Shown here in pieces: positions 20,442 to 59,749 of a stretch of 59,749 nt of DNA. The DNA comes from a virus. The stretch lies in the UHGV virus genome UHGV-0185078; one strand, 5' to 3'. Position 1 is the stretch's first letter. Every line of letters starts with the position of its first letter. The notes below the pieces were generated by a model. It searched no databases, was not told the DNA's origin, and saw only the letters and a program-made list of their open reading frames with translations. The translations under genes were made by a program, and so were the position numbers.

Positions 20442-20668
20442 TAGCGATCCTCGATTGCTCTAATTGTGGTTAAATCTAATTCACAGGTTGGAGGTAATCC
20501 ATAAAGCCCCATTTGTCTTCCTTGCGCATTAAACCATGTACCTGACGGATCCTGCCACTGCTTAGGTGTCTTGTGGAGAAATACTACTCTGTTTTCACCG
20601 TAATAATTAATTCTTACACCTGTGTGAGTATATTTACGTTTACCTTTTGGTCTTCTTAAGTTAGCCAT
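20441..20668 (-). CDS. hypothetical basic protein
   Basis: 75 aa ORF, start and stop overlap neighbours. Confidence 0.4.
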   Translation of the reverse strand: MANLRRPKGKRKYTHTGVRINYYGENRVVFLHKTPKQWQDPSGTWFNAQGRQMGLYGLPPTCELDLTTIRAIEDR

Positions 20669-21588
20669 CAGAACAACTCCATTACACGATCACGGAATGT
20701 GCCATCATGGGTAGCGTTAATGTTTGCAGCAATTACACCATACGCCCATAAGTTGAAGGCAGCACGTGATTCATAGATTGTTGATAAACGTTCGTAAGTG
20801 AAACCGTTTTGCTCAAGGTATTTAAGGACAGCGTCTTGTTCAATTTCAGTTAATGTTGAAACATGCTTACCAAAATGATGGCGGTCCGGTGACTTATCTG
20901 ATACGCGCATTGGCCCCCACGGAGGAGTAACCACACTTCCAAACGCTGCCGCTTGAATCCAGGAGGATGAGTCACAACTATACCACGGATAACGTTCCAT
21001 AATGGTTGTTGACGTAATACCAAACGCATGAAGTTTAATCTTAGCACGTCCGCTACCATCGCAAATATATTTGTCCCACATGCGGTCAAGCCAAGTCTTA
21101 AGCGTGTCCGTTGAACGTCCTACCATGCCCCCGATGGTGATATATTCGTAGTTCTTCATGTAGTATTCAAGATAGCGGAAGTCCTCCCCAAAGTGAAAGC
21201 ACGGTAACGGTTTAGCACCGCGTGCTTCCATTTCAAGCTGGTTACGGTAGGTCTGCAACGGATCACCGATACCATCGAGCACTGACGCCATTACAGCACC
21301 ATCTTCTACCCGCAAAATGTCTTTATTGCGCTTGATGTACTCGCAGTATTCAACAATATCAATGTGAGCACCCAAAGAGTGAGCGGAGAATGCACCAGAG
21401 TCGAGAAACACTTTAGCCCCATCCGCACGCATTTGATCAACATACTTCTGACGCCCAACGTAGTGGTACGATTCCAAAATATGGGGCAGGTTGCGAGTGA
21501 TATTTTTCTCATGCTCGGATAGCTTTTCGTAACGCTGCTGTCCAGGCATATATCCGTTAGTATACACAGCCGCCATGAATACATTCAT
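20668..21588 (-). CDS. dpdA: DpdA, tRNA-guanine transglycosylase-like DNA 7-deazaguanine transglycosylase
   Basis: 306 aa; TGT-like VFLDSGAFS motif; clustered with folE, queD, queC, queE. Confidence 0.75.
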   Translation of the reverse strand: MNVFMAAVYTNGYMPGQQRYEKLSEHEKNITRNLPHILESYHYVGRQKYVDQMRADGAKVFLDSGAFSAHSLGAHIDIVEYCEYIKRNKDILRVEDGAVMASVLDGIGDPLQTYRNQLEMEARGAKPLPCFHFGEDFRYLEYYMKNYEYITIGGMVGRSTDTLKTWLDRMWDKYICDGSGRAKIKLHAFGITSTTIMERYPWYSCDSSSWIQAAAFGSVVTPPWGPMRVSDKSPDRHHFGKHVSTLTEIEQDAVLKYLEQNGFTYERLSTIYESRAAFNLWAYGVIAANINATHDGTFRDRVMELF

Positions 21589-21612
21589 ATCTTAAATATA
21601 CCTCCAATGACT

Positions 21613-21648
21613 AAAAAGCCCATACCAGTATTATGACCGATATGGGCT
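21613..21648 (-). terminator. rho-independent terminator between folE and dpdA
   Basis: Minus strand reads agcccata...tatgggct hairpin followed by ttttt. Confidence 0.55.
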
Positions 21649-21667
21649 TGATCTGTAAAGCTATCTA

Positions 21668-22270
21668 TTATTTACAAGCTTCAAGGAACTCCCGGCGCCA
21701 AATTTGCCCCATCTCGGTACATTGATCCGTTTCCCCGCGAAACGCCTTAGTGATGGTAGAGCTTCCGCACACTTGCTTAACGCCGCGCGACTCCATGCAC
21801 ATATGCTTGGCGTCAATATAAACACATACAGCTTTCGGGTTTAAATTCTCTTCAATAGCGTCTGCAATCTGGTTAGTAAGACGTTCCTGAACTTGCAGTC
21901 GACGACTAAAAGCATCCACCACGCGAGACAGCTTACTAAGCCCAACGATCTTCCCATTGGGGACATAACCCACAACAGCATGACCGATAATAGGAGCCAT
22001 GTGATGCTCACAATGGCTGTATACAGGGATATCACGGACAATGACCATTTCATTGGTGTTTTCCGCCCCATCCTCAAAGGTCTTAAACAGCCCAGCAATA
22101 TCTACATCGTAACCGCCGAACCATGTAGCATAGGCTTTAGCGACACGATATGGAGTCTCTTCCAAACCTGGACGTAATTCAGTGCGATTTTCAATTCGAG
22201 TTAGTAAAGCGCGCACCGCGCGAGTAATTTCAAATTGAATACTTTCGTCATTAATAGTAAATTTTGACAT
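21668..22270 (-). CDS. folE: GTP cyclohydrolase I
   Basis: 200 aa; conserved CEHHMAPI...GHAVVGYVPNGKIVGLSKLSRVVD signature. Confidence 0.9.
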   Translation of the reverse strand: MSKFTINDESIQFEITRAVRALLTRIENRTELRPGLEETPYRVAKAYATWFGGYDVDIAGLFKTFEDGAENTNEMVIVRDIPVYSHCEHHMAPIIGHAVVGYVPNGKIVGLSKLSRVVDAFSRRLQVQERLTNQIADAIEENLNPKAVCVYIDAKHMCMESRGVKQVCGSSTITKAFRGETDQCTEMGQIWRREFLEACK

Positions 22271-22305
22271 GGTTTGCAGTTTCCTTGTTTGTTAATGTGG
22301 TCATA

Positions 22306-22839
22306 TTACAGGCTATAGTTTACGTGACATTTCGAAGTTTCTTCGATGGTGCATTCTACAAGTTGAACACCATGTTCGTCAAGCAGTTGCGGCCCAATTA
22401 CGTTTACCATGTATGCAGCTAAGTTTTCCGCAGTAGGGTTGAACGGTAAAGATACCAGCGAGTCAAAGAAATGGTATCCGTCCTCTTGCTCTACCACGTC
22501 ATACCCTATAGCAGCGTCGTGACGTAAAAGAGCATCGAGTCCTTTAATGAGAGGATCATTTTCCCAATGCAGGAATTTATGATCCCAGTTATCTTCCAGC
22601 CATTGGCAGAGCGTAGTTTTAACCACACTAAAATCAATAACGCGCCCAACATCGTCCAGTTTACCTTCAACGGAGAAACCTTTCGCACCCGGGATGTAGT
22701 TTTCGCTTTCTACGCGCTTCGGTGCAACCTTAAAGTGAAACTTATAGTTGTGACCGTGAAGGTGGCGACATTTGCTTTCATGACCCACAACACGATGTCC
22801 GGCGCAAATTTCATGTGAACGAATTACTGTATAGCTCAT
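22306..22839 (-). CDS. queD: 6-carboxy-5,6,7,8-tetrahydropterin synthase
   Basis: 177 aa; CAGHRVVGHESKCRHLHGHNY zinc-binding signature. Confidence 0.85.
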   Translation of the reverse strand: MSYTVIRSHEICAGHRVVGHESKCRHLHGHNYKFHFKVAPKRVESENYIPGAKGFSVEGKLDDVGRVIDFSVVKTTLCQWLEDNWDHKFLHWENDPLIKGLDALLRHDAAIGYDVVEQEDGYHFFDSLVSLPFNPTAENLAAYMVNVIGPQLLDEHGVQLVECTIEETSKCHVNYSL

Positions 22840-23168
22840 TAGAACTTCTCCGCGTGTTTTTCGTATGCTTTATTAATGACAGTGAGAAAGCACTGGTCCC
22901 ACTCACTCCACAGGACTTTACCCATACTTACCGCTTCAATGTAAAAAGTATGAGTGGCATCATCTTGGAACAATTTAATAGTGACGTCCGAACCATTTTG
23001 GATATAACCCATCAACGCGCGTATTTTATCACCTACATCCATGTATGGATTAAACTGAGGAACTGCTTCTTCAACCGCATCAATTAAATCATAAGCTTGC
23101 TGAGGGATGGGATTTCCGAAGGCCTTATGGGCAACACCTATTCTTGCTAGATTGCTCAGCTTATTCAT
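22839..23168 (-). CDS. hypothetical protein inside deazaguanine cluster
   Basis: 109 aa ORF, start/stop overlaps with neighbours imply co-translation in the cluster. Confidence 0.45.
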   Translation of the reverse strand: MNKLSNLARIGVAHKAFGNPIPQQAYDLIDAVEEAVPQFNPYMDVGDKIRALMGYIQNGSDVTIKLFQDDATHTFYIEAVSMGKVLWSEWDQCFLTVINKAYEKHAEKF

Positions 23169-23755
23169 TTTAATACCTCTTTAGATTGTTCGATTTCTAA
23201 CGCACGCTGTGCAGACGCAATAATGTCTTTCAAATCTTCTACCAGACTTTTATGACCGCGTTCGCCCGGCTGCAACGCCTTTTTAATTAAATGTTGTAAA
23301 GCTGGGTTAGTTGTTTTCCAAGCTTCCAAGACATCATACACGTCCACGATGCATTTTACAACATTGCCGTTTTGATCTTTACCATGAATAATTCTCTGAT
23401 ATTTATTCATAGGGATTTTAGACGGTTCGTATTTCGTAAAAACTGCACCATTAAATGTATTACTTATGCTTATTTCACTAGAAGGTTGATGATACACTCC
23501 GGAGCGAGTATTTTCCCGGGCTTGTTTGACGTAATCATCCGCAACGATATATCTCCAGGCTATAATATCTTGAATTTTATAAGGGCTATCCTCATCCATA
23601 GCTGAACGCCCGTCTATAGCCCAATCCCATCCATGTAATAGATTCTTAACGTGTGTGCCGTTGCGCAAACGAACTTCAAACTTTTCATTGCGAAGAAAGA
23701 TTGGCATTCCTTTCCCATCGTGCTGGTGCCAAATTTTATTAAGATTATCTTTCAT
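23165..23755 (-). CDS. hypothetical protein inside deazaguanine cluster
   Basis: Start set to ATG 23755 (track start at 23794 is TTG); 196 aa; no recognised motif. Confidence 0.45.
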   Translation of the reverse strand: MKDNLNKIWHQHDGKGMPIFLRNEKFEVRLRNGTHVKNLLHGWDWAIDGRSAMDEDSPYKIQDIIAWRYIVADDYVKQARENTRSGVYHQPSSEISISNTFNGAVFTKYEPSKIPMNKYQRIIHGKDQNGNVVKCIVDVYDVLEAWKTTNPALQHLIKKALQPGERGHKSLVEDLKDIIASAQRALEIEQSKEVLK

Positions 23756-23756
23756 T

Positions 23757-24239
23757 CTACGCTCTTGCTGTACTTGAATGAACTTCGTAAACAATCCAAA
23801 GGATAGCGGATGCTGTGAACTTACTTAAGCTCATTGCCACCATTGATCCAGGATTAACAATACCTATAATACTTAAGAACACAATGGAGTCAATCGGTAC
23901 AGCTACCAAAGAGCTAATAAATACACGTTGATGAAACGGCTTCTTAGTAATCGTGTATACCGCATAGTCCGCAAACTCACTAAGCGCAAAAGACGCAACG
24001 GATGCAACTACAACAGCAGGATCCCCAAATACCCAGCTAAGGATGCAACCCACAATCATTGCAGGGATAACGCCTTTGCCAGCGTTACGCTGTGCGTAGT
24101 CACGCAACACAAAGATAATACCTACAAAGAAAGCCATCATTGGGACTACACCGAGTGGTGTATTAAGCATTGGAAGGTAGGAAAAGCCCAGGTTTACGAA
24201 TGTAATTGCAGCCAGATAAGCAACGATAAATTTCATACT
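23757..24239 (-). CDS. integral membrane protein, possible YhhQ/QueT-like 7-deazaguanine precursor transporter
   Basis: Start set to ATG 24239 (GGAG RBS 9 nt upstream); 160 aa with 4-5 hydrophobic helices; weak resemblance to the YhhQ family; lies between queD and queC. Confidence 0.4.
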   Translation of the reverse strand, partial: SMKFIVAYLAAITFVNLGFSYLPMLNTPLGVVPMMAFFVGIIFVLRDYAQRNAGKGVIPAMIVGCILSWVFGDPAVVVASVASFALSEFADYAVYTITKKPFHQRVFISSLVAVPIDSIVFLSIIGIVNPGSMVAMSLSKFTASAILWIVYEVHSSTARA

Positions 24240-24356
24240 TTTGTTCTCCAGTTTTAACAGCGTTATTCGCTGGTTGTTGGGTTTAAAAGCTTTAGTAGTA
24301 TAGTTGGGTTCCCGCACCCTAAACAATGCGCTAGCGGTGCGGTTTTCGCGGTAAGA

Positions 24357-25064
24357 TCAAGCTTTGCTAATAAATTCGCTGTACCCTTTAGCACGCAGTT
24401 TGCACGCAGGACATTCACCGCAACCATAGCCCCAGTCATGCAGAGTGCGACGGATACCATTATAGCAGGTATGGGACTGTTCAATTACTGTGGTTAAGAA
24501 ACCAACCTTATCCGCCAGTTCAAACGTTTCCGCTTTGTTTAAACGCATAAGAGGGGTAACAAAATGAATATCTGTTTCATATCCAACGTTTAACGTAGCT
24601 TCAAGGAGATCAACAAACTGCTGGCGACAATCCGGATAACCGCTATAGTCTGTTTCACAAACGCCTGTAACCACATATCGAGCGCCAACTTTCTGTGCGT
24701 AGGCGTGAGCGGTAGTCAGGAAAAGAGCATTACGGTTTGGCACAAAGCTTGCTGGAAGGTTGTTGTGCTGTTCGTGATGTTCGTTAACATCACCTTCGTT
24801 CCCGATTAAAGCGCTATTGCCAATCTGTTTTAAAGCAGGTAATTCAAAGACAACAAATGGGACATCGTGCTCTTTACAAATTTGATTAGCACAAGCCAGC
24901 TCAATGTTATGACGTTGACCGTATGCAAAACCAATAGCGTAGACCTTATCATAGTTATTAAGTGCAAGGCCCAAACAGGTTACGCTGTCCTGGCCGCCAG
25001 ACAGGACGACAACGGCGGAGTTATGATTTTTTACAGGGAATACCAGTTTATCTAATTTATTCAT
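24357..25064 (-). CDS. queC: 7-cyano-7-deazaguanine synthase
   Basis: 235 aa; PP-loop VVVLSGGQDS; C-terminal Zn-Cys cluster CYNG...CGECPAC. Confidence 0.9.
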   Translation of the reverse strand: MNKLDKLVFPVKNHNSAVVVLSGGQDSVTCLGLALNNYDKVYAIGFAYGQRHNIELACANQICKEHDVPFVVFELPALKQIGNSALIGNEGDVNEHHEQHNNLPASFVPNRNALFLTTAHAYAQKVGARYVVTGVCETDYSGYPDCRQQFVDLLEATLNVGYETDIHFVTPLMRLNKAETFELADKVGFLTTVIEQSHTCYNGIRRTLHDWGYGCGECPACKLRAKGYSEFISKA

Positions 25065-25269
25065 TTACTTCACCTTTAATATCACAAGGATTGATTGTTA
25101 CGTTTGACATCACAATTGGATGATTGCGTGCCCCAATTGTACTAACGTAATTAATATCTAATTCTACATGCACGCCCTGCATAGTAGCGTGAGCAATTGC
25201 AGAATTAAGTTTTTCCACCAGCTCAGTGATCATTTCCTGATGCTGTTTCGCTTCTTCCAAAGTGATCAT
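25057..25269 (-). CDS. hypothetical protein inside deazaguanine cluster
   Basis: 70 aa; ATG 25269 with GAAGGTGA RBS; overlaps the upstream ORF. Confidence 0.4.
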   Translation of the reverse strand: MITLEEAKQHQEMITELVEKLNSAIAHATMQGVHVELDINYVSTIGARNHPIVMSNVTINPCDIKGEVNE

Positions 25270-25522
25270 TTCTTTTCACCTTCACTAATGTTTGTTTATA
25301 ATCCATACCTTCAAGGTCAACTTCTGCCATTTCACAAAAGTTATTATCTTCCCAGTATGGTGTCCATTCAGTTTCACCATCCCTCAATGTTGGCTCATAC
25401 TCGAATCCGTAAACTGTACCGTCTTGATCCGTAGCCATCCACCGTACCCATTCAGGGACATCAATCTTATTGCCAAAGTATTCAACTTCTTTAGTATGCA
25501 CAACCTGACTTAACACACGCAT
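25223..25522 (-). CDS. hypothetical acidic protein inside deazaguanine cluster
   Basis: 99 aa ORF, start overlaps queE stop. Confidence 0.4.
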   Translation of the reverse strand: MRVLSQVVHTKEVEYFGNKIDVPEWVRWMATDQDGTVYGFEYEPTLRDGETEWTPYWEDNNFCEMAEVDLEGMDYKQTLVKVKRNDHFGRSETASGNDH

Positions 25523-26229
25523 TATTCCACCCCGATATATTTGTGAACCTGAAGCTGCAACGTGTACCCGTGTTTCATACAGCTTTGGACAACCGCTTGG
25601 ATGTTACTGTGGTTAAGATCTTCATCCTGCTCGTCCATTGGCTGTAAATATATCTTACCCTTGAACCCCTTCGGAGGTCTAGCGATAAATGGCGTAGCTT
25701 GATGATCTAATGCTTGAAGAGGTAAACCATCTTCCACGTTTACACAGCACGCTTTAAGTACATATTTAAATGCATTAGCGCGGTAAAGCACAGAAGGATG
25801 AATCTTTGAGGTCTTGGGACTACATACAATCACAGGCAACTGGGAAAAGTTCTTAGGTAAAGGCATAGACCCATTAGTTTCGATTTGCACCAAATAGCCC
25901 CGCGATAACAGTTGTTCAATAAACGGGTTAATTTGCTGACGGAACGGTTCACCCCCAGTAATAACCACAAGTGAGGTGCTATTGCCTGATTCCAGCTTAC
26001 GGCTTTCGATTAAACGCATGATATCAACAATGTGGTAAAGAGAACGACCAACAGTATAATCCGTGTCGCAGCCCGGGCATTGTAGGTTACATCCAGCAAG
26101 ACGCACAAATACAGCAGGTTGGCCGCAGAATGGCCCTTCACCCTGAATGGTAGAGAATACCGAATGCACGTCTAAATACATATCGTTTTCTTTAGAACGA
26201 GACTCGGGAGCTTGTTGATTAATATTCAT
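25522..26229 (-). CDS. queE: 7-carboxy-7-deazaguanine synthase (radical SAM)
   Basis: 235 aa; radical-SAM Cys triad CNLQCPGCDT; AGAGGA RBS. Confidence 0.9.
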   Translation of the reverse strand: MNINQQAPESRSKENDMYLDVHSVFSTIQGEGPFCGQPAVFVRLAGCNLQCPGCDTDYTVGRSLYHIVDIMRLIESRKLESGNSTSLVVITGGEPFRQQINPFIEQLLSRGYLVQIETNGSMPLPKNFSQLPVIVCSPKTSKIHPSVLYRANAFKYVLKACCVNVEDGLPLQALDHQATPFIARPPKGFKGKIYLQPMDEQDEDLNHSNIQAVVQSCMKHGYTLQLQVHKYIGVE

Positions 26230-26245: not shown

Positions 26246-26274
26246 AAAAAGAAGGCGCCCCATTGGGCGCCTTC
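26246..26274 (-). terminator. rho-independent terminator upstream of queE
   Basis: 10-bp perfect stem gaaggcgccc/gggcgccttc, 4-nt loop, then ttttt on the minus strand. Confidence 0.7.
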
Positions 26275-26298
26275 ATTATAACGTGATATGTTTTGATA

Positions 26299-27102
26299 TT
26301 ACAAGCCGTTCAGGGCTTCCGGTACTGGTACAGGTACGCGACCAGTCACACCATTAAATTTCTTCCAGCGTGCATACTGGGTTTTAACAGTATCTTCGTT
26401 CAGACCGTGACGACCAGCCAGGTTCAGAACATAAGAGATCGGAGCAGGCTGGCCCAGCGTAGCGCTAATCTGGTCCATCAGAGCCCAGGCACGACCGCAG
26501 GAAGTTTCCGGTTGCGGACGGCGAACACCGTTCTGTTCCGGCATACGATTAGCTTCTTTTTCTTTCTCGCGGAGCTCTTTAGCGCGCGCTTTTTCCGCTT
26601 CTTTTTCTGCCTGTTTTGCAGCACGGATCTTGTCTTTGAAGCCTTTAATAGTAGATTCCAGTTCGTCGACCATGCTCTGAGCAGCAGTCACTGCACCGGA
26701 CAGATCTTCACCTTTGGATTTTTTAACAACTGCTTTCAGATCTTTCAGAGCATTCTTTAAATGCTTCAGCTGTTCAGAACCCTTAGATTCTGCTTCCGTA
26801 ATCTGTTCAACAGTGCTTTCATCGGTAATACCGGATAAAGCAAACTTCACGGTTTCAACTGCCTGGGAAAGAGCGGTAAATTTGTTTTCCGCTTCAGCGC
26901 GGATTTCAGCTTGTTTCTTTTCAGCGGCAGCTTTTTTCTCTGCTTCTTTTTTCTCTTTTGCTACGCGTGCAGCTTCAGCAGCAGCGGCTTTCTTAGCTTC
27001 TGCGTCATTCACAGTAGCTTCTTTCTTTGCAGGTTTAGCAGATTTTGCGGCGGCAGCGGCAGCGGCTGCGGCAGCAGCTTTTTTGTCTTCAATGTTGCTC
27101 AT
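26299..27102 (-). CDS. Lys/Ala-rich histone H1-like protein with conserved C-terminal domain
   Basis: ATG 27102 with GGAG RBS; poly-Ala run and KKAAAE repeats; C-terminal WALMDQISATLGQPAP...YARWKKFNG paralogous to C-terminus of ORF 43605-44219. Confidence 0.55.
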   Translation of the reverse strand: MSNIEDKKAAAAAAAAAAAKSAKPAKKEATVNDAEAKKAAAAEAARVAKEKKEAEKKAAAEKKQAEIRAEAENKFTALSQAVETVKFALSGITDESTVEQITEAESKGSEQLKHLKNALKDLKAVVKKSKGEDLSGAVTAAQSMVDELESTIKGFKDKIRAAKQAEKEAEKARAKELREKEKEANRMPEQNGVRRPQPETSCGRAWALMDQISATLGQPAPISYVLNLAGRHGLNEDTVKTQYARWKKFNGVTGRVPVPVPEALNGL

Positions 27103-27229
27103 TCTCTTCACTCCGAATTGTTATGGGTTCGTTTGTTACCAACGGGGTTAAATGTACCAAAGGATTTTGTGACACGCAACCCCTTATCTGAACATTTTTA
27201 AAAATATTTTTGATCAAGCTTAGAACTTA

Positions 27230-37831: not shown

Positions 37832-38386
37832 TTAAGATTCTTTTCCGTGTCTAAGACTATACCCTAATTCATACTCTTTGGCAAATCTTACTTCAATAGC
37901 TTCATCTTTTGTAGGATAACTACCAAGATGCGTCCATTTTCCGTCAATACTTATAGCAGCTTGCCAAAGTCCTGTAGCAGGATTAAATTTTACGCCCGTA
38001 CATCCGGACGTGTTGTTAATGTTCATGCGTCTATTCTTTTGGTTATCTTGTCGTGAACTATTTTTTAAGTTCCATGGACGGTTATTCAACCCATTCCCGT
38101 CATCATGATCAATTTCTTCAGGTTCTTCATTATAGAGCATCTTCCAGATTATACGATGTGCCAGATAATGAAGACCGTCTAGACCAACAAGAATATAAAC
38201 GTTTCGGTCTTTAACAACAGCGCGACCAGCTTCTTTTCCTGCGAACTGAGAGTTGAATTTGGAACAAGCTCTTTGTGTTTTAAAGAACTTTAAAGGCGCT
38301 TTCTTCCATCTTAAAATGCCAGTCTCTTCATTATACTCAAAACGATCATGCAAATAGTCAAATGAAGGTAAAGGTCTAAATCTCAT
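37832..38386 (-). CDS. HNH homing endonuclease with AP2-like C-terminal domain
   Basis: HRIIWKMLYNEEPEEIDHDDGNGLNNRPWNLK HNH motif; C-terminal GVKFNPATGLWQAAISIDGKWTHLGSYPTKDEA AP2-like; start taken at ATG 38386. Confidence 0.75.
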   Translation of the reverse strand: MRFRPLPSFDYLHDRFEYNEETGILRWKKAPLKFFKTQRACSKFNSQFAGKEAGRAVVKDRNVYILVGLDGLHYLAHRIIWKMLYNEEPEEIDHDDGNGLNNRPWNLKNSSRQDNQKNRRMNINNTSGCTGVKFNPATGLWQAAISIDGKWTHLGSYPTKDEAIEVRFAKEYELGYSLRHGKES

Positions 38387-38627
38387 ATTATTACCTATAA
38401 CCAATATGTAAACCAGAAATAACCAGCTACGAAAATAGCACCCGCAAATAATTTTAAAAGCTCGAACATTGTCCCCTCCGTTAACTTTATGCTGTAAGTA
38501 TAGCAGGACTTGCGATGTATGCAACAACTTTAGACTTGAAATGCATCTATAAAATAGCACGATTTGCCTTTACCTCTGATCCGTCTAGCTGTACTATTAA
38601 CCCATAAACAGAGCGGAGGATTACAAA

Positions 38628-42442: not shown

Positions 42443-42463
42443 AAATCCTCCTAGTGAACTGGT

Positions 42464-42740
42464 AATGCCACTATAAAACAGCTATTAGCTATTTGCAAGA
42501 ATTGTTTTAATATAGTGCTTAGTGGCGTACATAGTGGGCAAAACGTGTATAGTACGTCGTTACTGGCTTTGTAAAAGTTTGCCACTATAAACCACTATCC
42601 CACTATCCACTAATTTTTTATTTTTACACAGAGCAAAGTTTATAAGTTTACGGTTTCCCCCTTATTACCCCGTTTTCAAACAAAGAATTAGTAGTAGTAG
42701 TGAAAACGTGTAAATGCCACTATCACTACTATACTATTAA
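42464..42740. repeat. iteron cluster, repeated (G)CCACTAT motif in both orientations
   Basis: gccactataaa (42467), inverted atagtgc/tagtggc/atagtggg (42512-42538), tandem gccactataaa-ccactatcc-cactatcc-actaa (42581-42613), gccactatcactactatactatt (42716-42738). Confidence 0.55.
42470..42498 (-). promoter_or_regulatory. candidate sigma70-like promoter for gene 41714-42442, overlapping an iteron
   Basis: Minus strand TTGCAA-17-TATAGT, then AGGAGG RBS and ATG; the -10 is the reverse complement of the CCACTAT iteron. Confidence 0.45.
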
Positions 42741-42769
42741 TTATCTGAAAAAAGTTGGGAGTATACCCC

Positions 42770-42935
42770 TATAAACTTATAAACTTTCAGTCAACTAACT
42801 AAAATAAACCAAATTAAACTAATATTAATAATAACTATAAATATATATAAAATAAGGATTTATTATTATTGTATATAGTACCTATTGGTATTATGTGATG
42901 AGTTTATAGTCACTAAATAAACTCTATAAATTTTA
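42770..42935. other. strongly AT-rich tract with ATAAAC repeats (candidate DNA unwinding element)
   Basis: About 165 bp of mostly A/T with repeated ataaac/ataaat motifs immediately beside the iteron cluster. Confidence 0.5.
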
Positions 42936-43110
42936 ATAAACCTGAACGGATGCAGATCAAAAACGAGAAGTCAAGTGCTTTTGAGGGAAATTTATTGAAC
43001 TATTGTGATCGAAAGGTATATCAAGCTATAATGCGCTTAATCGCGGAGTATTGGAGGAGGACTTTATTGCGCGGTTAACCGGACCAGTTGGAGGGCTGAC
43101 CCGGTTGGAG

Positions 43111-43440
43111 TTAAAGTTCGGTGATTTGGTAAAGGCTAATAGTGTCGTTGGACATTACGCCGGACAGGATGCCGTTCGTCCAGTTTATGCAGTAAGGCGA
43201 ATGTAACGTGTTATGCATGAAGTAAAGGTCGTTATTGATAATGCTTCGCATCGGCTGTACTGCAATAAGGTTGTCTTCTAAAACGTGCTTTACATAGTCG
43301 TCATTAGGAATAGTAAAGCTGTCTTTAAACTTGCCGAACATTGGCGTTAATTTTACAAGGCGACCTTTTTGTTCAACCTTGTATACGTTCTTGCGGAAGA
43401 ACTGACCGTGTTCAATATAGCTGCGTACGAAACTAGTCAT
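43111..43440 (-). CDS. hypothetical protein
   Basis: 109 aa ORF. Confidence 0.4.
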   Translation of the reverse strand: MTSFVRSYIEHGQFFRKNVYKVEQKGRLVKLTPMFGKFKDSFTIPNDDYVKHVLEDNLIAVQPMRSIINNDLYFMHNTLHSPYCINWTNGILSGVMSNDTISLYQITEL

Positions 43441-43551
43441 TTATTCGTCCTCCATCAAAGCGCGTTTCATGTCACCGTTGCATACAACGGCAATTCCCAT
43501 TTCATAAAGTGCTTCAAGTTGCTCGATAGTAATTGTTTCATAGTAAGACAT
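43441..43551 (-). CDS. small hypothetical protein
   Basis: 36 aa from ATG 43551 (GAGGA RBS); longer track ORF starts at a non-ATG codon and overlaps the upstream gene. Confidence 0.3.
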   Translation of the reverse strand: MSYYETITIEQLEALYEMGIAVVCNGDMKRALMEDE

Positions 43552-43604
43552 GTTTGTATCCTCAGGTTGTTGAGGGCTCCCGCAGAAGCCGATGTGGTTA
43601 TCGA

Positions 43605-44219
43605 TTAAGCGTCCAGGCCGTTGTACTTGCGCCATGCGTAGAACTGGATTGCTACTGTTGTGCCGTTGTAAGAAGGCATTGCAGCTTTCATTTCTTTCAG
43701 CTCAGGTGTACGTCCCAGCTCAGCGAGCAGCTTGTCACCCATTGCCCAAACTTCAGCAGTTTTACCTTTCAGCGGCTTGCGAGCGCCATTTTTAAAATCA
43801 CAGCGAGCAGCTTTTGCATCTTGTTTTGGCGCGGCAGCTTTTGGCTCTTCAATTTTGATTTCAGAAACCTGCGTGGCAGCTTTTGCGTGTTTCATATCTT
43901 TCTCTTCCTCCTGCTCCAGAGCTTCGAGGCAGCTTTTGACGATTTCCGGATTTACCATCGGGCGCAGTACCGAGACGCTAGCAGCAGGCGCGGCGGTCGG
44001 TGCCGGGACTTTCTGCCCCGGCTGTTGCGCTTTTTTATGGTCGCGCAGTACCTGAAGCACTTCCTTCTCGACGATATAAAAACCGATTTCGTCCTGATGG
44101 ATAAGCTGTTCGTGTGCATCGCGTGCAACCTGGCCCCAGCGGGTCTTAAGGGCACGGCGTGCATTCGTTTTCATGGTGTAACGCATTTTGTCCTGTTCGC
44201 GGTGAGTTACTTTAGACAT
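43605..44219 (-). CDS. Lys/Ala/Glu-rich protein with conserved C-terminal domain (paralog of 26299-27102)
   Basis: 204 aa; C-terminal VWAMGDKLLAELGRTPELKEMKAAM...FYAWRKYNG aligns with the C-terminus of ORF 26299-27102. Confidence 0.45.
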   Translation of the reverse strand: MSKVTHREQDKMRYTMKTNARRALKTRWGQVARDAHEQLIHQDEIGFYIVEKEVLQVLRDHKKAQQPGQKVPAPTAAPAASVSVLRPMVNPEIVKSCLEALEQEEEKDMKHAKAATQVSEIKIEEPKAAAPKQDAKAARCDFKNGARKPLKGKTAEVWAMGDKLLAELGRTPELKEMKAAMPSYNGTTVAIQFYAWRKYNGLDA

Positions 44220-44308
44220 GGTATGTTCCTTCTGTTAGATTGTTTAGTTGTCTTGCTAAGTTGACTTATTATTGCCCACCGTGTTGAAATGGGCAAGATA
44301 TAAATCAC

Positions 44309-44458
44309 TTAATTTGTAATTTTATCTACACAGTAGTCAGCATCAAATTCCGCCGGGCTAATACCCAATTGGGCAATTGCAGCCGCTTCAGCTTCAACGA
44401 AATTGTTGGCTTCAATGAACGCGACGATAACACCGTATTTATTAATGACTTCGTACAT
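44309..44458 (-). CDS. small hypothetical protein (first leftward gene)
   Basis: 49 aa ORF MYEVINKYGVIVAFIEANNFVEAEAAAIAQLGISPAEFDADYCVDKITN, translated by hand; below the track size cutoff. Confidence 0.3.
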   Translation of the reverse strand: MYEVINKYGVIVAFIEANNFVEAEAAAIAQLGISPAEFDADYCVDKITN

Positions 44459-44795
44459 GGTCTAACCCTTAATGTGGTTAAGCAGTATTGCTTTGTTGAA
44501 GTAATAATAGCCTTGCATCGTGATATTGAATAGGCCAAAAGTGCTATTTTAGATCACTATTACATCTACAGCTTTGCAGTAACGCTACGCTAAAAATGCA
44601 AAGTTTTACGTTTGCTAAACATGTAGATTTTGTGCTCATCCCTCTTAGTACGTATAACGTCTATTATGTTAAATAGCTAAGTTATTGATTTATGGTAAAT
44701 CTTGTATCAATTTGGACGTTATAGGCGTCTAACGTATTGATTTATAAGGGTGTAAAATTTTGCTGTTTGTAGCGCATAAAAAGGAACAAACCGGG

Positions 44796-44824
44796 ATGTC
44801 ATAAAATGACATGTGTTTTGTCAT
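44796..44824. promoter_or_regulatory. operator-like overlapping inverted repeats in the divergent control region
   Basis: atgtcat-aaa-atgacat perfect palindrome overlapping atgaca-N7-tgtcat; three TGTCAT-type half sites just upstream of the putative rightward promoter. Confidence 0.4.
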
Positions 44825-44844
44825 TATAAATGCCACGTTTGGCC

Positions 44845-44873
44845 TAGACATAGATCAAGTCATGGCGTACTAT
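44845..44873 (+). promoter_or_regulatory. candidate rightward early promoter
   Basis: TAGACA-17-TACTAT about 45 nt upstream of the first rightward ORF and its GGAGG RBS. Confidence 0.35.
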
Positions 44874-44916
44874 ATAGTCAAAGGAAAGATAAAGCCGAAA
44901 GGCGGAGGAAAATAAA

Positions 44917-45066
44917 ATGAGAAAGTTTAAAGTCATGTACTACGGTAACTACATTGGAGACGTTAAAGCTCCGAATCGTGCAGATGCAGAAGGTTTCGTT
45001 CGCGCAGAGATGCAGATTGGAATCGCCGATTTTGCAGCCATTATCGAACTGGTAGAGGTATTTTAA
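44917..45066 (+). CDS. small hypothetical early protein
   Basis: 49 aa ORF, GGAGG RBS 9 nt upstream of ATG, directly downstream of the putative rightward promoter; hand-translated. Confidence 0.4.
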   Translation: MRKFKVMYYGNYIGDVKAPNRADAEGFVRAEMQIGIADFAAIIELVEVF

Positions 45067-45067
45067 T

Positions 45068-45208
45068 ATGTCACGCAAATACACGCTTACACGCGCACAG
45101 CACGCGTTATTAATTGCAGCAATGCACGCAGAATATGCAGTTCATGGCTGGCATAGTGCCATGATGCGCGGTAAAAGCATATATGCGGACATGCGCTCGC
45201 AAGGATAA
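45068..45208 (+). CDS. small hypothetical early protein
   Basis: 46 aa ORF starting 1 nt after the previous stop; hand-translated. Confidence 0.3.
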   Translation: MSRKYTLTRAQHALLIAAMHAEYAVHGWHSAMMRGKSIYADMRSQG

Positions 45209-45244
45209 CGCACACAGCGCCACGCTAGCGAGCTAATGTACATA

Positions 45245-45264
45245 GGTAATGGTAATGCATTACC
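45245..45264. repeat. ggtaat direct repeat followed by 14-bp perfect palindrome ggtaatgcattacc
   Basis: Read directly from the sequence in the 45209-45774 non-coding region. Confidence 0.5.
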
Positions 45265-45475
45265 AACACACAACGAGCGCGCTGTACCCCACAAAGCGGC
45301 GCTAATTTCAATACTCACAGGCTGTACGTTAACGCGTACGGCCTGCTCTTCTATATGCACGCCATGTATATAGCCAGCTCACGATGCACATCAATATAAT
45401 TACGAATGAAATGGATTCGTTTTGGAAGAATAACGATTCTTACCGTCGCAGACCGGTCCGATGAGCCAACTCATA

Positions 45476-45600
45476 GACCCCACCTAGGATCATCAGGGTA
45501 CTAATAATCACCCAAGGGCGCCTTATCCATCCTGATAGTAAGTGCTTGTCTAAATCTCACCCATCACATAGCCTATCCACCTACATCCATGACCCCACCT
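45476..45600. repeat. direct repeats gaccccacct (45476-45485 and 45591-45600) with tatccac-like motifs between
   Basis: Two 10-bp identical copies 115 bp apart; intervening ccatcc / ctatccacc motifs. Confidence 0.45.
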
Positions 45601-59032: not shown

Positions 59033-59413
59033 ATGAGCTTTCCTTACGAGCAGCTAGTTGAAGCCGCAAAGCAAATGATCAACGATGCTGGTGTTAACTG
59101 TACCCTTGTGGTTATGGAGCAAGGGGAAGGTCAAGATGAATGGGACGATCCAAGCGTTGAAAAACGATACCCATTCATTGGAGCTTTCCTTTCACCAAAG
59201 GAAAAGATGATTGGTGGCAGCCTTGTTTCTGCTGGTGAACTGAAAGTGTTAACTTACCCAATGACACCTCCATTGACTCGCGATAAAGCAATGACTGCAC
59301 GCATTGAGCGTATGTCGCCGGATGGGGAGCTGGAAGTGTGGACCATAAATGAGTTTGTTGATACACGACCAGCTAACGTTTCTGTTCTTTACACTTTTAA
59401 GGTGACGCGATAA
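59033..59413 (+). CDS. head-tail joining (head closure) protein
   Basis: 126 aa; position in neck module. Confidence 0.45.
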   Translation: MSFPYEQLVEAAKQMINDAGVNCTLVVMEQGEGQDEWDDPSVEKRYPFIGAFLSPKEKMIGGSLVSAGELKVLTYPMTPPLTRDKAMTARIERMSPDGELEVWTINEFVDTRPANVSVLYTFKVTR

Positions 59414-59749
59414 TGGGATTCGGGGCGGATATTCGACGTGCGAGCCAGAAGGTACTTGTTCAGACAAGCGAGCAAGCCAAAAAAGTCGTTGTCAAGTTCA
59501 CAGAGAACGTGATACAGGATACTCCTGTTAAGACCGGACGTACAAAAGGTGGTTGGCGGTCATCCATTGGCGCGCCGTATGCAACGGAAACTATCCGCCT
59601 CGATCCTACTGGAGAGATGGCTAAAGCTGAAGCCCGAGTTGTTGCACGTCAACTACCTAATGATAAAGACTGGACTTTCTATTTTAGCAACCTGACACCA
59701 TATGCTGGCAAACTGGAGTTCTTAGGTTGGTCACAGCAAGCTCCGAACG
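59413..59749 (+). CDS. neck/tail-completion protein (HK97 gp10-like), 5' part, runs off window end
   Basis: ATG 59413 (GGTGA RBS) overlapping upstream stop; open to the last base of the window. Confidence 0.5.
   Translation, partial: MGFGADIRRASQKVLVQTSEQAKKVVVKFTENVIQDTPVKTGRTKGGWRSSIGAPYATETIRLDPTGEMAKAEARVVARQLPNDKDWTFYFSNLTPYAGKLEFLGWSQQAPN

Follow-up and report, generated by a model that had tools for sequence, protein, structure and literature searches.

The interval from position 20668 to 26229 of the viral genome UHGV-0185078 raises the question of whether it holds a complete pathway for exchanging guanine in phage DNA for a 7-deazaguanine and, if so, which modified base is made. The stretch of DNA analysed, referred to here as the window, is this genome at its full length of 59,749 nucleotides (nt). 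All sizeable open reading frames (ORFs) of the interval lie on the minus strand, to which all coordinates given for the cluster refer, and its limits are the stop of a 306-amino-acid (aa) ORF and the start of a 235-aa ORF. A preliminary description, made from the letters of the sequence, had recognised here the genes folE, queD, queE and queC for the synthesis of 7-cyano-7-deazaguanine (preQ0) from guanosine triphosphate (GTP) and dpdA for its insertion into DNA. The five are indeed intact minus-strand ORFs at the positions it gave, accompanied by what it had overlooked, namely a gene for a YhhQ-like putative transporter (23757-24236) and four small ORFs of 109, 209, 70 and 99 aa. The reading favoured here, at a probability of roughly 93%, is that the interval forms a complete 7-deazaguanine module of the Seuratvirus type that would convert about 28% of the guanines of the genome to 2′-deoxy-7-cyano-7-deazaguanosine (dPreQ0). 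Such a cluster has been described in detail before, and the key enzyme encoded here has the identical sequence of one studied experimentally in the coliphage CAjan.

Enzymes of preQ0 synthesis and insertion

The first enzyme, FolE (21668-22270, 200 aa), is assigned as a GTP cyclohydrolase I that would convert GTP to dihydroneopterin triphosphate (H2NTP). It matches PF01227 at 1e-62 (211 bits), exceeds the cut-offs of TIGR00063 (190 bits against 181.6) and NF006825 (204 against 174), bears the zinc-binding and catalytic CEHH motif at residue 87, and qualifies as a type 1 GTP cyclohydrolase I. Weak matches to QueF on the same protein (25 bits; 30.6 bits against a cut-off of 86.9 for TIGR03139) lie about 180 bits below those of the FolE models and arise because the T-fold is common to both families. 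QueD (22306-22839, 177 aa), a 6-carboxytetrahydropterin synthase expected to turn H2NTP into 6-carboxytetrahydropterin (CPH4), matches PF01242 at 8.5e-22 (77.8 bits against a cut-off of 22.4) and is placed in the QueD family, with the sequence CRHLHGH at residue 24 providing the CxxxHGH motif by which QueD is told apart from PTPS. The third enzyme, QueE (25522-26229, 235 aa), is assigned as a radical-SAM 7-carboxy-7-deazaguanine synthase that would act on CPH4 to give 7-carboxy-7-deazaguanine (CDG); it carries the CxxxCxxC motif as CNLQCPGC at residue 47 and matches PHROG 2076 at 1.7e-68.

The last of the four, QueC (24357-25064, 235 aa), is a 7-cyano-7-deazaguanine synthase predicted to take CDG by way of its amide (ADG) to preQ0. 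It matches PF06508 at 1.2e-74 and TIGR00364 with 243 bits against a cut-off of 150.3, and it has the PP-loop SGGQDS at residue 22 as well as the zinc-binding C-terminal cysteines Cys200, Cys215, Cys218 and Cys221. It is a stand-alone QueC in every respect examined, with no N-terminal amidotransferase (Gat) domain, and its five differences from the QueC of CAjan all fall outside the motifs, four of them in the last few residues. All four motifs quoted in the preliminary description for the synthesis enzymes are therefore present. Upstream of QueD and downstream of QueC lies the YhhQ-like protein, which reads as 159 aa from an ATG at 24236 (the mechanically called ORF reaches back to a TTG at 24326). 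It is a membrane protein sharing 97.5% identity with gp41 of CAjan, whose annotation reads ‘putative preQ0 transporter’, and it scores under the cut-offs of PF02592 (Vut_1; 24.8 bits against 27.2, 3.2e-5) and of the queuosine-precursor-transporter model TIGR00697 (20.3 bits against 50.95, 3.8e-4). The protein may be able to import preQ0 and would be dispensable; deletion of yhhQ in CAjan leaves modification unchanged (PMC7544227).

The 306-aa protein encoded at 20668-21588 is the DNA-guanine transglycosylase DpdA, which would exchange guanine for preQ0 in double-stranded DNA. It is 100% identical to CAjan DpdA over its 306 aa and 69% identical to the DpdA of phage 9g, and it matches PHROG 887 at 8e-96. 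A homology model of CAjan DpdA built on the archaeal tRNA-guanine transglycosylase (arcTGT) structure 1IQ8 gives D206 as the nucleophile and D63 as the base (PMC7544227), and by this analogy catalysis here would likewise proceed through Asp206 and Asp63. The nine active-site residues named for CAjan DpdA (D206, D63, S64, F67, D105, H132, G153, G154 and F189) are all present, and when 12 diverse DpdAs are aligned, taken from phages of Escherichia, Pseudomonas, Vibrio, Rhizobium, Synechococcus, Bacillus, Mycobacterium, Streptococcus, Cellulophaga, Rhodococcus and Arthrobacter, D63, S64, D105, H132 and D206 are invariant. The exchange reaction itself is known for the identical CAjan protein only through genetics, and is attributed to DpdA on that basis.

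Several results weigh against the assignments made above. QueD falls short of TIGR03367 (62.7 bits against 89.25; 3.2e-17), and the top five NCBIfam matches of QueE, although all of them QueE models (1.2e-27 to 1.8e-20), stay below their cut-offs, at 74-97 bits where 200-300 are required. DpdA has no Pfam match, the TGT family PF01702 included, even at E ≤ 10, and it reaches 16.9 bits against a cut-off of 200 on NF041059, the NCBIfam equivalog model of bacterial DpdA; a profile of the 12 phage sequences finds the DpdA structure 7ui4 as its top match in the PDB at E = 0.63, a value not taken as evidence by itself. Within the cluster, FolE, QueD and the two ORFs that follow QueD diverge more from CAjan (55-88% identity) than the rest, and the four small ORFs have no assigned function. 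Most of the other ORFs of the window were scanned against Pfam as concatenated pseudo-proteins, at a loss of a few bits of sensitivity, and the product, finally, is assigned by homology.

The shortfall of QueD on TIGR03367 is probably due to two phage-specific inserts. For QueE, placement in the family relies on an identity of 99.6% to the CAjan enzyme and of 64% to the QueE of 9g, which complements an E. coli queE mutant. The preliminary description had proposed family hidden Markov models (HMMs) as a check of each enzyme, and this was borne out in part: FolE and QueC exceed their equivalog cut-offs and QueD that of its Pfam family, while QueE, QueD on its TIGR model and DpdA remain below those applied to them. 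It had also taken failure of such searches as grounds for abandoning DpdA, which proves too strict, since the failure is a false negative, general curated HMMs missing the phage DpdA subfamily. Among the 12 phage DpdAs scanned, none matched the Pfam TGT family and four gave weak matches to NF041059, and of 2,811 homologues found in the protein database at E ≤ 1e-5, none of the best 120 had a precomputed Pfam domain. The curated HMM libraries have a gap for phage DpdA1, and judged by its sequence the protein is filed under this phage type and not under the bacterial DpdA equivalog.

Because general HMMs fail on DpdA, its fold was tested directly. A phmmer search of the protein against PDB sequences returned nothing at E ≤ 10, and a single-sequence AlphaFold prediction (pLDDT, the predicted local distance difference test score, of 38.6) was unusable and was replaced by a model made from an alignment of 70 homologues. 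This model has a pLDDT of 73, and of 70-94 across residues 1-208, the core of the barrel; the predicted structure is a TGT-like (β/α)8 barrel.

The predicted base and its target sites

What such a set of enzymes makes has been established for relatives of this phage. According to the published rule, FolE, QueD, QueE and QueC together with DpdA give dPreQ0, and Gat-QueC in place of QueC gives 2′-deoxyarchaeosine (dG+) (PMC6884629; PMC8594841). CAjan DNA contains 70,628 dPreQ0 per 10^6 nt, whereas dADG, dG+, dPreQ1 and dQ are each below 6, as measured by liquid chromatography-tandem mass spectrometry (LC-MS/MS; PMC6884629). As the only product found, dPreQ0 occupies 23-32% of the guanines of CAjan, at GA and GGC motifs, the modified sites having been located by nanopore sequencing (PMC7544227). 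Deletion of CAjan dpdA leaves no dPreQ0 (PMC6884629, PMC7544227), deletion of folE or queC brings modification under the nanopore cut-off (Kot et al., PMC7544227), and LC-MS/MS shows dPreQ0 reduced 12-fold in the queC mutant (PMC7544227). The 9g genes folE, queD and queE complement the matching E. coli mutants, and 9g DpdA with Gat-QueC alone modifies up to 18% of plasmid guanines (≤18%; PMC6884629).

The present analysis shows which genes are there and that they are intact, together with their motifs, the fold and the identity to characterised proteins; enzyme activities, product, target motifs and protection come from the published experiments on CAjan and 9g, and we infer that the phage of the window behaves in the same way. 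Since its DpdA is identical to that of CAjan, the specificity for GA and GGC should carry over, so that preQ0 would be inserted at 5′-GA and 5′-GGC as guanine is removed from already replicated, double-stranded phage DNA. In the window 24.3% of guanines lie in GA and 4.0% in GGC, a total of 28.2% or 62.6 per 10^3 nt, with about 6,400 GA and about 1,050 GGC positions over both strands; the corresponding figures for CAjan are 23.96% and 4.28% (PMC10484667). About 28% of guanines would accordingly be expected as dPreQ0, which should give the genome partial protection from type I and type II restriction. Wild-type CAjan DNA blocks EcoRV and HaeIII (PMC7544227). The window contains 18 EcoRV and 54 HaeIII sites, as well as 39 for PsiI/AanI, 18 for NsiI and 2 each for SpeI/BcuI and BstEII. 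In the BASEL work the pathway is the signature of the genera Seuratvirus (dPreQ0) and Nonagvirus (dG+), both of which resist type I and type II restriction-modification and are sensitive to type III (PMC8594841). The preliminary description had taken the locus for an anti-restriction system known from some coliphages; in CAjan the cluster has been studied with knockouts, by LC-MS/MS and by nanopore sequencing. In practical terms, the DNA of this phage is expected to resist cleavage at many restriction sites containing GA or GGC and to give nanopore reads of lower quality, and the phage could be a target of defences directed against DNA that is hypermodified, the END nucleases for example (PMC12191111).

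The choice of dPreQ0 over dG+ or dPreQ1 depends on what accompanies the five enzymes. The Pfam scan took in 91 ORFs, some singly and the rest as concatenated pseudo-proteins; of the 92 called, it omitted one of 42 aa (27089-27217). Among these 91 there is no glutamine amidotransferase (GATase), ArcS/DUF5591, DUF3109 (DpdM) or formyltransferase (DpdN) domain, no QueF domain beyond the sub-threshold match on FolE, and a single PTPS-family protein, hence no second one that might be DpdL; the remaining ORFs carry replication, recombination, lysis and structural domains. A tblastn search with the N-terminal 240 residues (the Gat half) of 9g Gat-QueC found nothing in the window at E ≤ 0.1, and only residues 241-457, the QueC half, align to the QueC found here. 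The absence of Gat-QueC or ArcS amidotransferases and of a QueF-like reductase, on which the preliminary description had relied, is in this way upheld by Pfam and tblastn, and for DpdL, DpdM and DpdN, which it had also proposed to look for, the Pfam scan likewise shows no such domain in the 91 ORFs. With respect to Gat-QueC, ArcS, QueF/QueF-L, DpdM, DpdN and DpdL the genome has the Seuratvirus-type dPreQ0 profile, and since QueC stands alone, with no Gat or further-modifying domain, dPreQ0 is the predicted base. This prediction is less conjectural than first presented: the call of dPreQ0 agrees with the published rule for plain QueC and with CAjan, where the identical DpdA yields only dPreQ0, and near-identical proteins have been tested experimentally.

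Three other readings were weighed against this one. It appears highly improbable that the final base is a further derivative (dG+, dADG, dPreQ1 or a new one) made through the small ORFs or the divergent FolE and QueD alleles. Such a reading could draw on the four interval ORFs that have no assigned function, on a cluster middle just 55-88% identical to CAjan, and on the absence of the 99-aa ORF from CAjan. No amidotransferase, reductase, methylase or formylase domain occurs in the ORFs scanned, however; the conserved parts of the 209- and 109-aa ORFs are found outside the Queuovirinae, the 209-, 70- and 99-aa ORFs have homologues that belong to the normal complement of other Seuratvirus genomes, and QueC, on which the choice between ADG and preQ0 depends, shares 97.9% identity with its CAjan counterpart, with differences outside the motifs only.

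Slightly less credible still is that the genes are present and the level or target motif of modification differs from CAjan, whether through weak expression or dependence on preQ0 from the host. The spacer between folE and dpdA does differ from that of CAjan, with a hairpin-and-promoter-like element where CAjan has gp36, and the host E. coli makes preQ0, the CAjan queC mutant keeping one-twelfth of the wild-type level; yet the motif is set by DpdA, which does not differ from CAjan DpdA, the ORFs are intact and all have ribosome-binding sites, and GA and GGC sites are as dense as in CAjan. There is also very little reason to expect that the diverged middle of the cluster (FolE and QueD, the 109-, 209- and 99-aa ORFs and the replacement of gp36) alters the product or its amount; if it did, the outcome might be a minor extra 7-deazaguanine or a separately timed DpdA, for which there is no positive support.

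Least tenable is that the cluster serves tRNA, placing preQ0 or queuosine precursors there to tune translation, as would fit the many deposited annotations of identical or near-identical dpdA genes as ‘queuine/queuosine tRNA-ribosyltransferase’ and the fold that DpdA shares with tRNA-guanine transglycosylases (TGTs), for this is already refuted for the identical CAjan protein, which is needed for dPreQ0 in DNA (PMC6884629), while 9g dpdA gives no complementation of E. coli tgt but does insert preQ0 into plasmid DNA (PMC6884629), DpdA lacks the C-terminal tRNA-binding domains of arcTGT (306 against 577 aa, with about 200 residues aligning), and no tRNA genes, QueA, QueG or QueH were found in the window.

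Relation to known clusters and the small ORFs

The dPreQ0 pathway, a signature of the genus Seuratvirus, is known from genetic and chemical work with a resolution down to single sites, and the cluster of the window follows that of CAjan (Seuratvirus cajan, NC_028776) closely. In CAjan, gp35 to gp45 lie on the same strand in the same order (queE, then queC and yhhQ, then queD, folE and dpdA), likewise between DNA polymerase and clamp genes on one side and a helicase gene on the other. Identity to CAjan is 100% for DpdA, 99.6% for QueE, 97.9% for QueC, 97.5% for the YhhQ-like protein, 87.7% for FolE and 77% for QueD; both phages have QueC without a Gat domain, and the share of guanines in GA and GGC is the same 28.2% in both. 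CAjan gp36 and gp43 are absent from the phage of the window, and the 99-aa ORF after queE, present here and in phage Greed, has no match in CAjan. Allelic divergence of FolE and QueD and the shuffling of small ORFs are the sole differences from the known system.

Phage 9g, of the genus Nonagvirus, has homologues in the same order (FolE 80%, QueD 76%, QueE 64% and DpdA 69% identical) and uses the same transglycosylation chemistry. It differs in having Gat-QueC, a 471-aa fusion of amidotransferase and QueC, in place of the plain 235-aa QueC found here, in making 2′-deoxyarchaeosine, and in lacking the yhhQ-like gene. Pseudomonas phage iggy encodes all five enzymes as well and also makes dPreQ0, with a DpdA 72% identical to the one described here; its QueC is unrelated in sequence and its DpdA targets GA alone (about 16.5% of guanines; PMC10484667), whereas the DpdA of the window is the GA and GGC allele of CAjan. 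The bacterial Dpd system (DpdA, DpdB and DpdC; 7ui4) sits in a restriction-modification-like island, and in the window we found neither its ATPase partner DpdB nor DpdC, the enzyme that turns preQ0 into ADG. From the TGTs proper (arcTGT, 1iq8, and bacterial TGT) DpdA is far removed, with about 11-15% identity, no match to the Pfam TGT family, no tRNA-binding C-terminal domains, and double-stranded DNA as its substrate. Some caution with annotation is called for here, as DpdA goes unrecognised by Pfam and NCBIfam and many GenBank records mislabel it as a tRNA enzyme (‘queuine tRNA-ribosyltransferase’) or enter it as ‘hypothetical protein’.

A sharp mosaic boundary is seen within the cluster, the segment 21668-23794 containing the diverged FolE, QueD, 109-aa and 209-aa ORFs. 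FolE differs from that of CAjan with a different N-terminus, and the differences in QueD gather in two insert regions. Compared at the level of sequence, this pattern suggests that the middle of the cluster has been exchanged by recombination among Seuratvirus phages.

Four small ORFs are interspersed among the pathway genes. The 109-aa ORF (22839-23168) has no Pfam, NCBIfam or PHROG match; it is 89% identical to a protein of phage BRET, only its N-terminal 45 aa match CAjan gp39, its C-terminal half recurs in phages that do not belong to the Queuovirinae, those of Klebsiella and Salmonella among them, and it is probably not part of the pathway. The 209-aa ORF (23165-23794), whose start is probably Met14 near 23755, resembles CAjan gp40 (55% identity) and a Greed protein (85%), matches PHROG 23361 at 3e-100, and is 45% identical at its C-terminus to 9g gene 07. 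Its C-terminal 75 aa or so (23165-23400) are found in 680 phage records, mostly of groups other than the Queuovirinae, among them many Salmonella, Escherichia, Klebsiella and Vibrio siphophages. This conserved domain (...DVYDVLEAW...ALQHLIKKALQPGERGHKSLVEDLKDII...) is covered by no Pfam family, and a few records label it ‘ATPase’ or ‘terminase ATPase subunit’, probably wrongly. Since the domain occurs mostly in groups not listed as encoding deazaguanine pathways, it is not specific to the pathway. An accessory role for the 209-aa ORF, considered in view of its place in the clusters of both CAjan and 9g, was rejected on account of these 680 records and because 9g DpdA and Gat-QueC suffice for modification of plasmids.

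The 70-aa ORF (25057-25269) is a homologue of CAjan gp44 (94% identity) that matches PHROG 26258 and has no Pfam match, and the 99-aa ORF (25223-25522), 93% identical to that of Greed, belongs to PHROG 1972, a family of unknown function. Taken together, the four look like the usual mosaic ORFs of phages rather than components of the pathway.

The spacers of the cluster contain further elements. Between folE and dpdA, where CAjan and Greed have the small ORF gp36, the window has a hairpin-and-promoter-like element (21616-21659) made up of TTTACA, 18 nt and CATAAT; these overlap a hairpin, behind which come a T-run and a GGAGG ribosome-binding site before the dpdA ATG. Upstream of queE (26251-26304) stand TTGTAA, 18 nt and TATAAT, a G+C-rich hairpin of 10 bp, TTTTT and a ribosome-binding site, and this spacer possibly marks a transcriptional boundary of the cluster. 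The two are similar modules, each with sigma-70-like hexamers at 18-nt spacing, a hairpin, a T-run and a Shine-Dalgarno sequence, and could act as promoter-plus-attenuator elements. In a promoter and terminator scan of the region, the counts equalled the shuffle expectation, and the modules are to be read as consensus matches alone. No riboswitch, for preQ1 or otherwise, was recognised: across the window, all Rfam families stay below their gathering scores.

The source genome

The window is a complete genome of the genus Seuratvirus (Queuovirinae), circularly permuted and opened at an arbitrary point relative to CAjan. Its last ORF (59413-59749) is cut off by the 3′ end and resumes in the same frame in bases 1-71, giving a 135-aa protein that has the length of the CAjan tail-completion protein gp10 and ends where the ORF for the tail terminator (71-520) begins; this continuity across the ends of the window, together with the gp10 length, is what identifies it as a complete permuted genome. 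There is no terminal direct repeat in the window. The cluster region matches 52 phage records, nearly all of them Escherichia Seuratvirus, at 90-94% nucleotide identity, and the best value across the deazaguanine cluster, exceeded by no record, is 94.1%. Comparison at the genome level consisted of per-protein comparisons and a megablast search with one 25-kb stretch, by which the nearest genomes are SHIN8, SeppeHuegi, KS_A3 and Seurat, with about 95% identity over about 83-87% of that stretch. By the 95% rule the phage may be a separate species of Seuratvirus.

Two features outside the cluster were noted. Just downstream of the primase gene, a 242-aa ORF on the minus strand (37832-38560) has the Pfam HNH_3 homing-endonuclease domain and is probably a mobile HNH endonuclease; the annotated HNH gene of CAjan sits elsewhere in the CAjan genome. 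The region 42450-45600 contains only short or doubtful ORFs, including one on the plus strand (43533-44264, 243 aa) of odd composition, rich in Cys, Phe and Leu, that is probably not a gene. Gene orientation and GC skew switch at about 45-46 kb, and the region is likely to be a divergent early-promoter or origin region.

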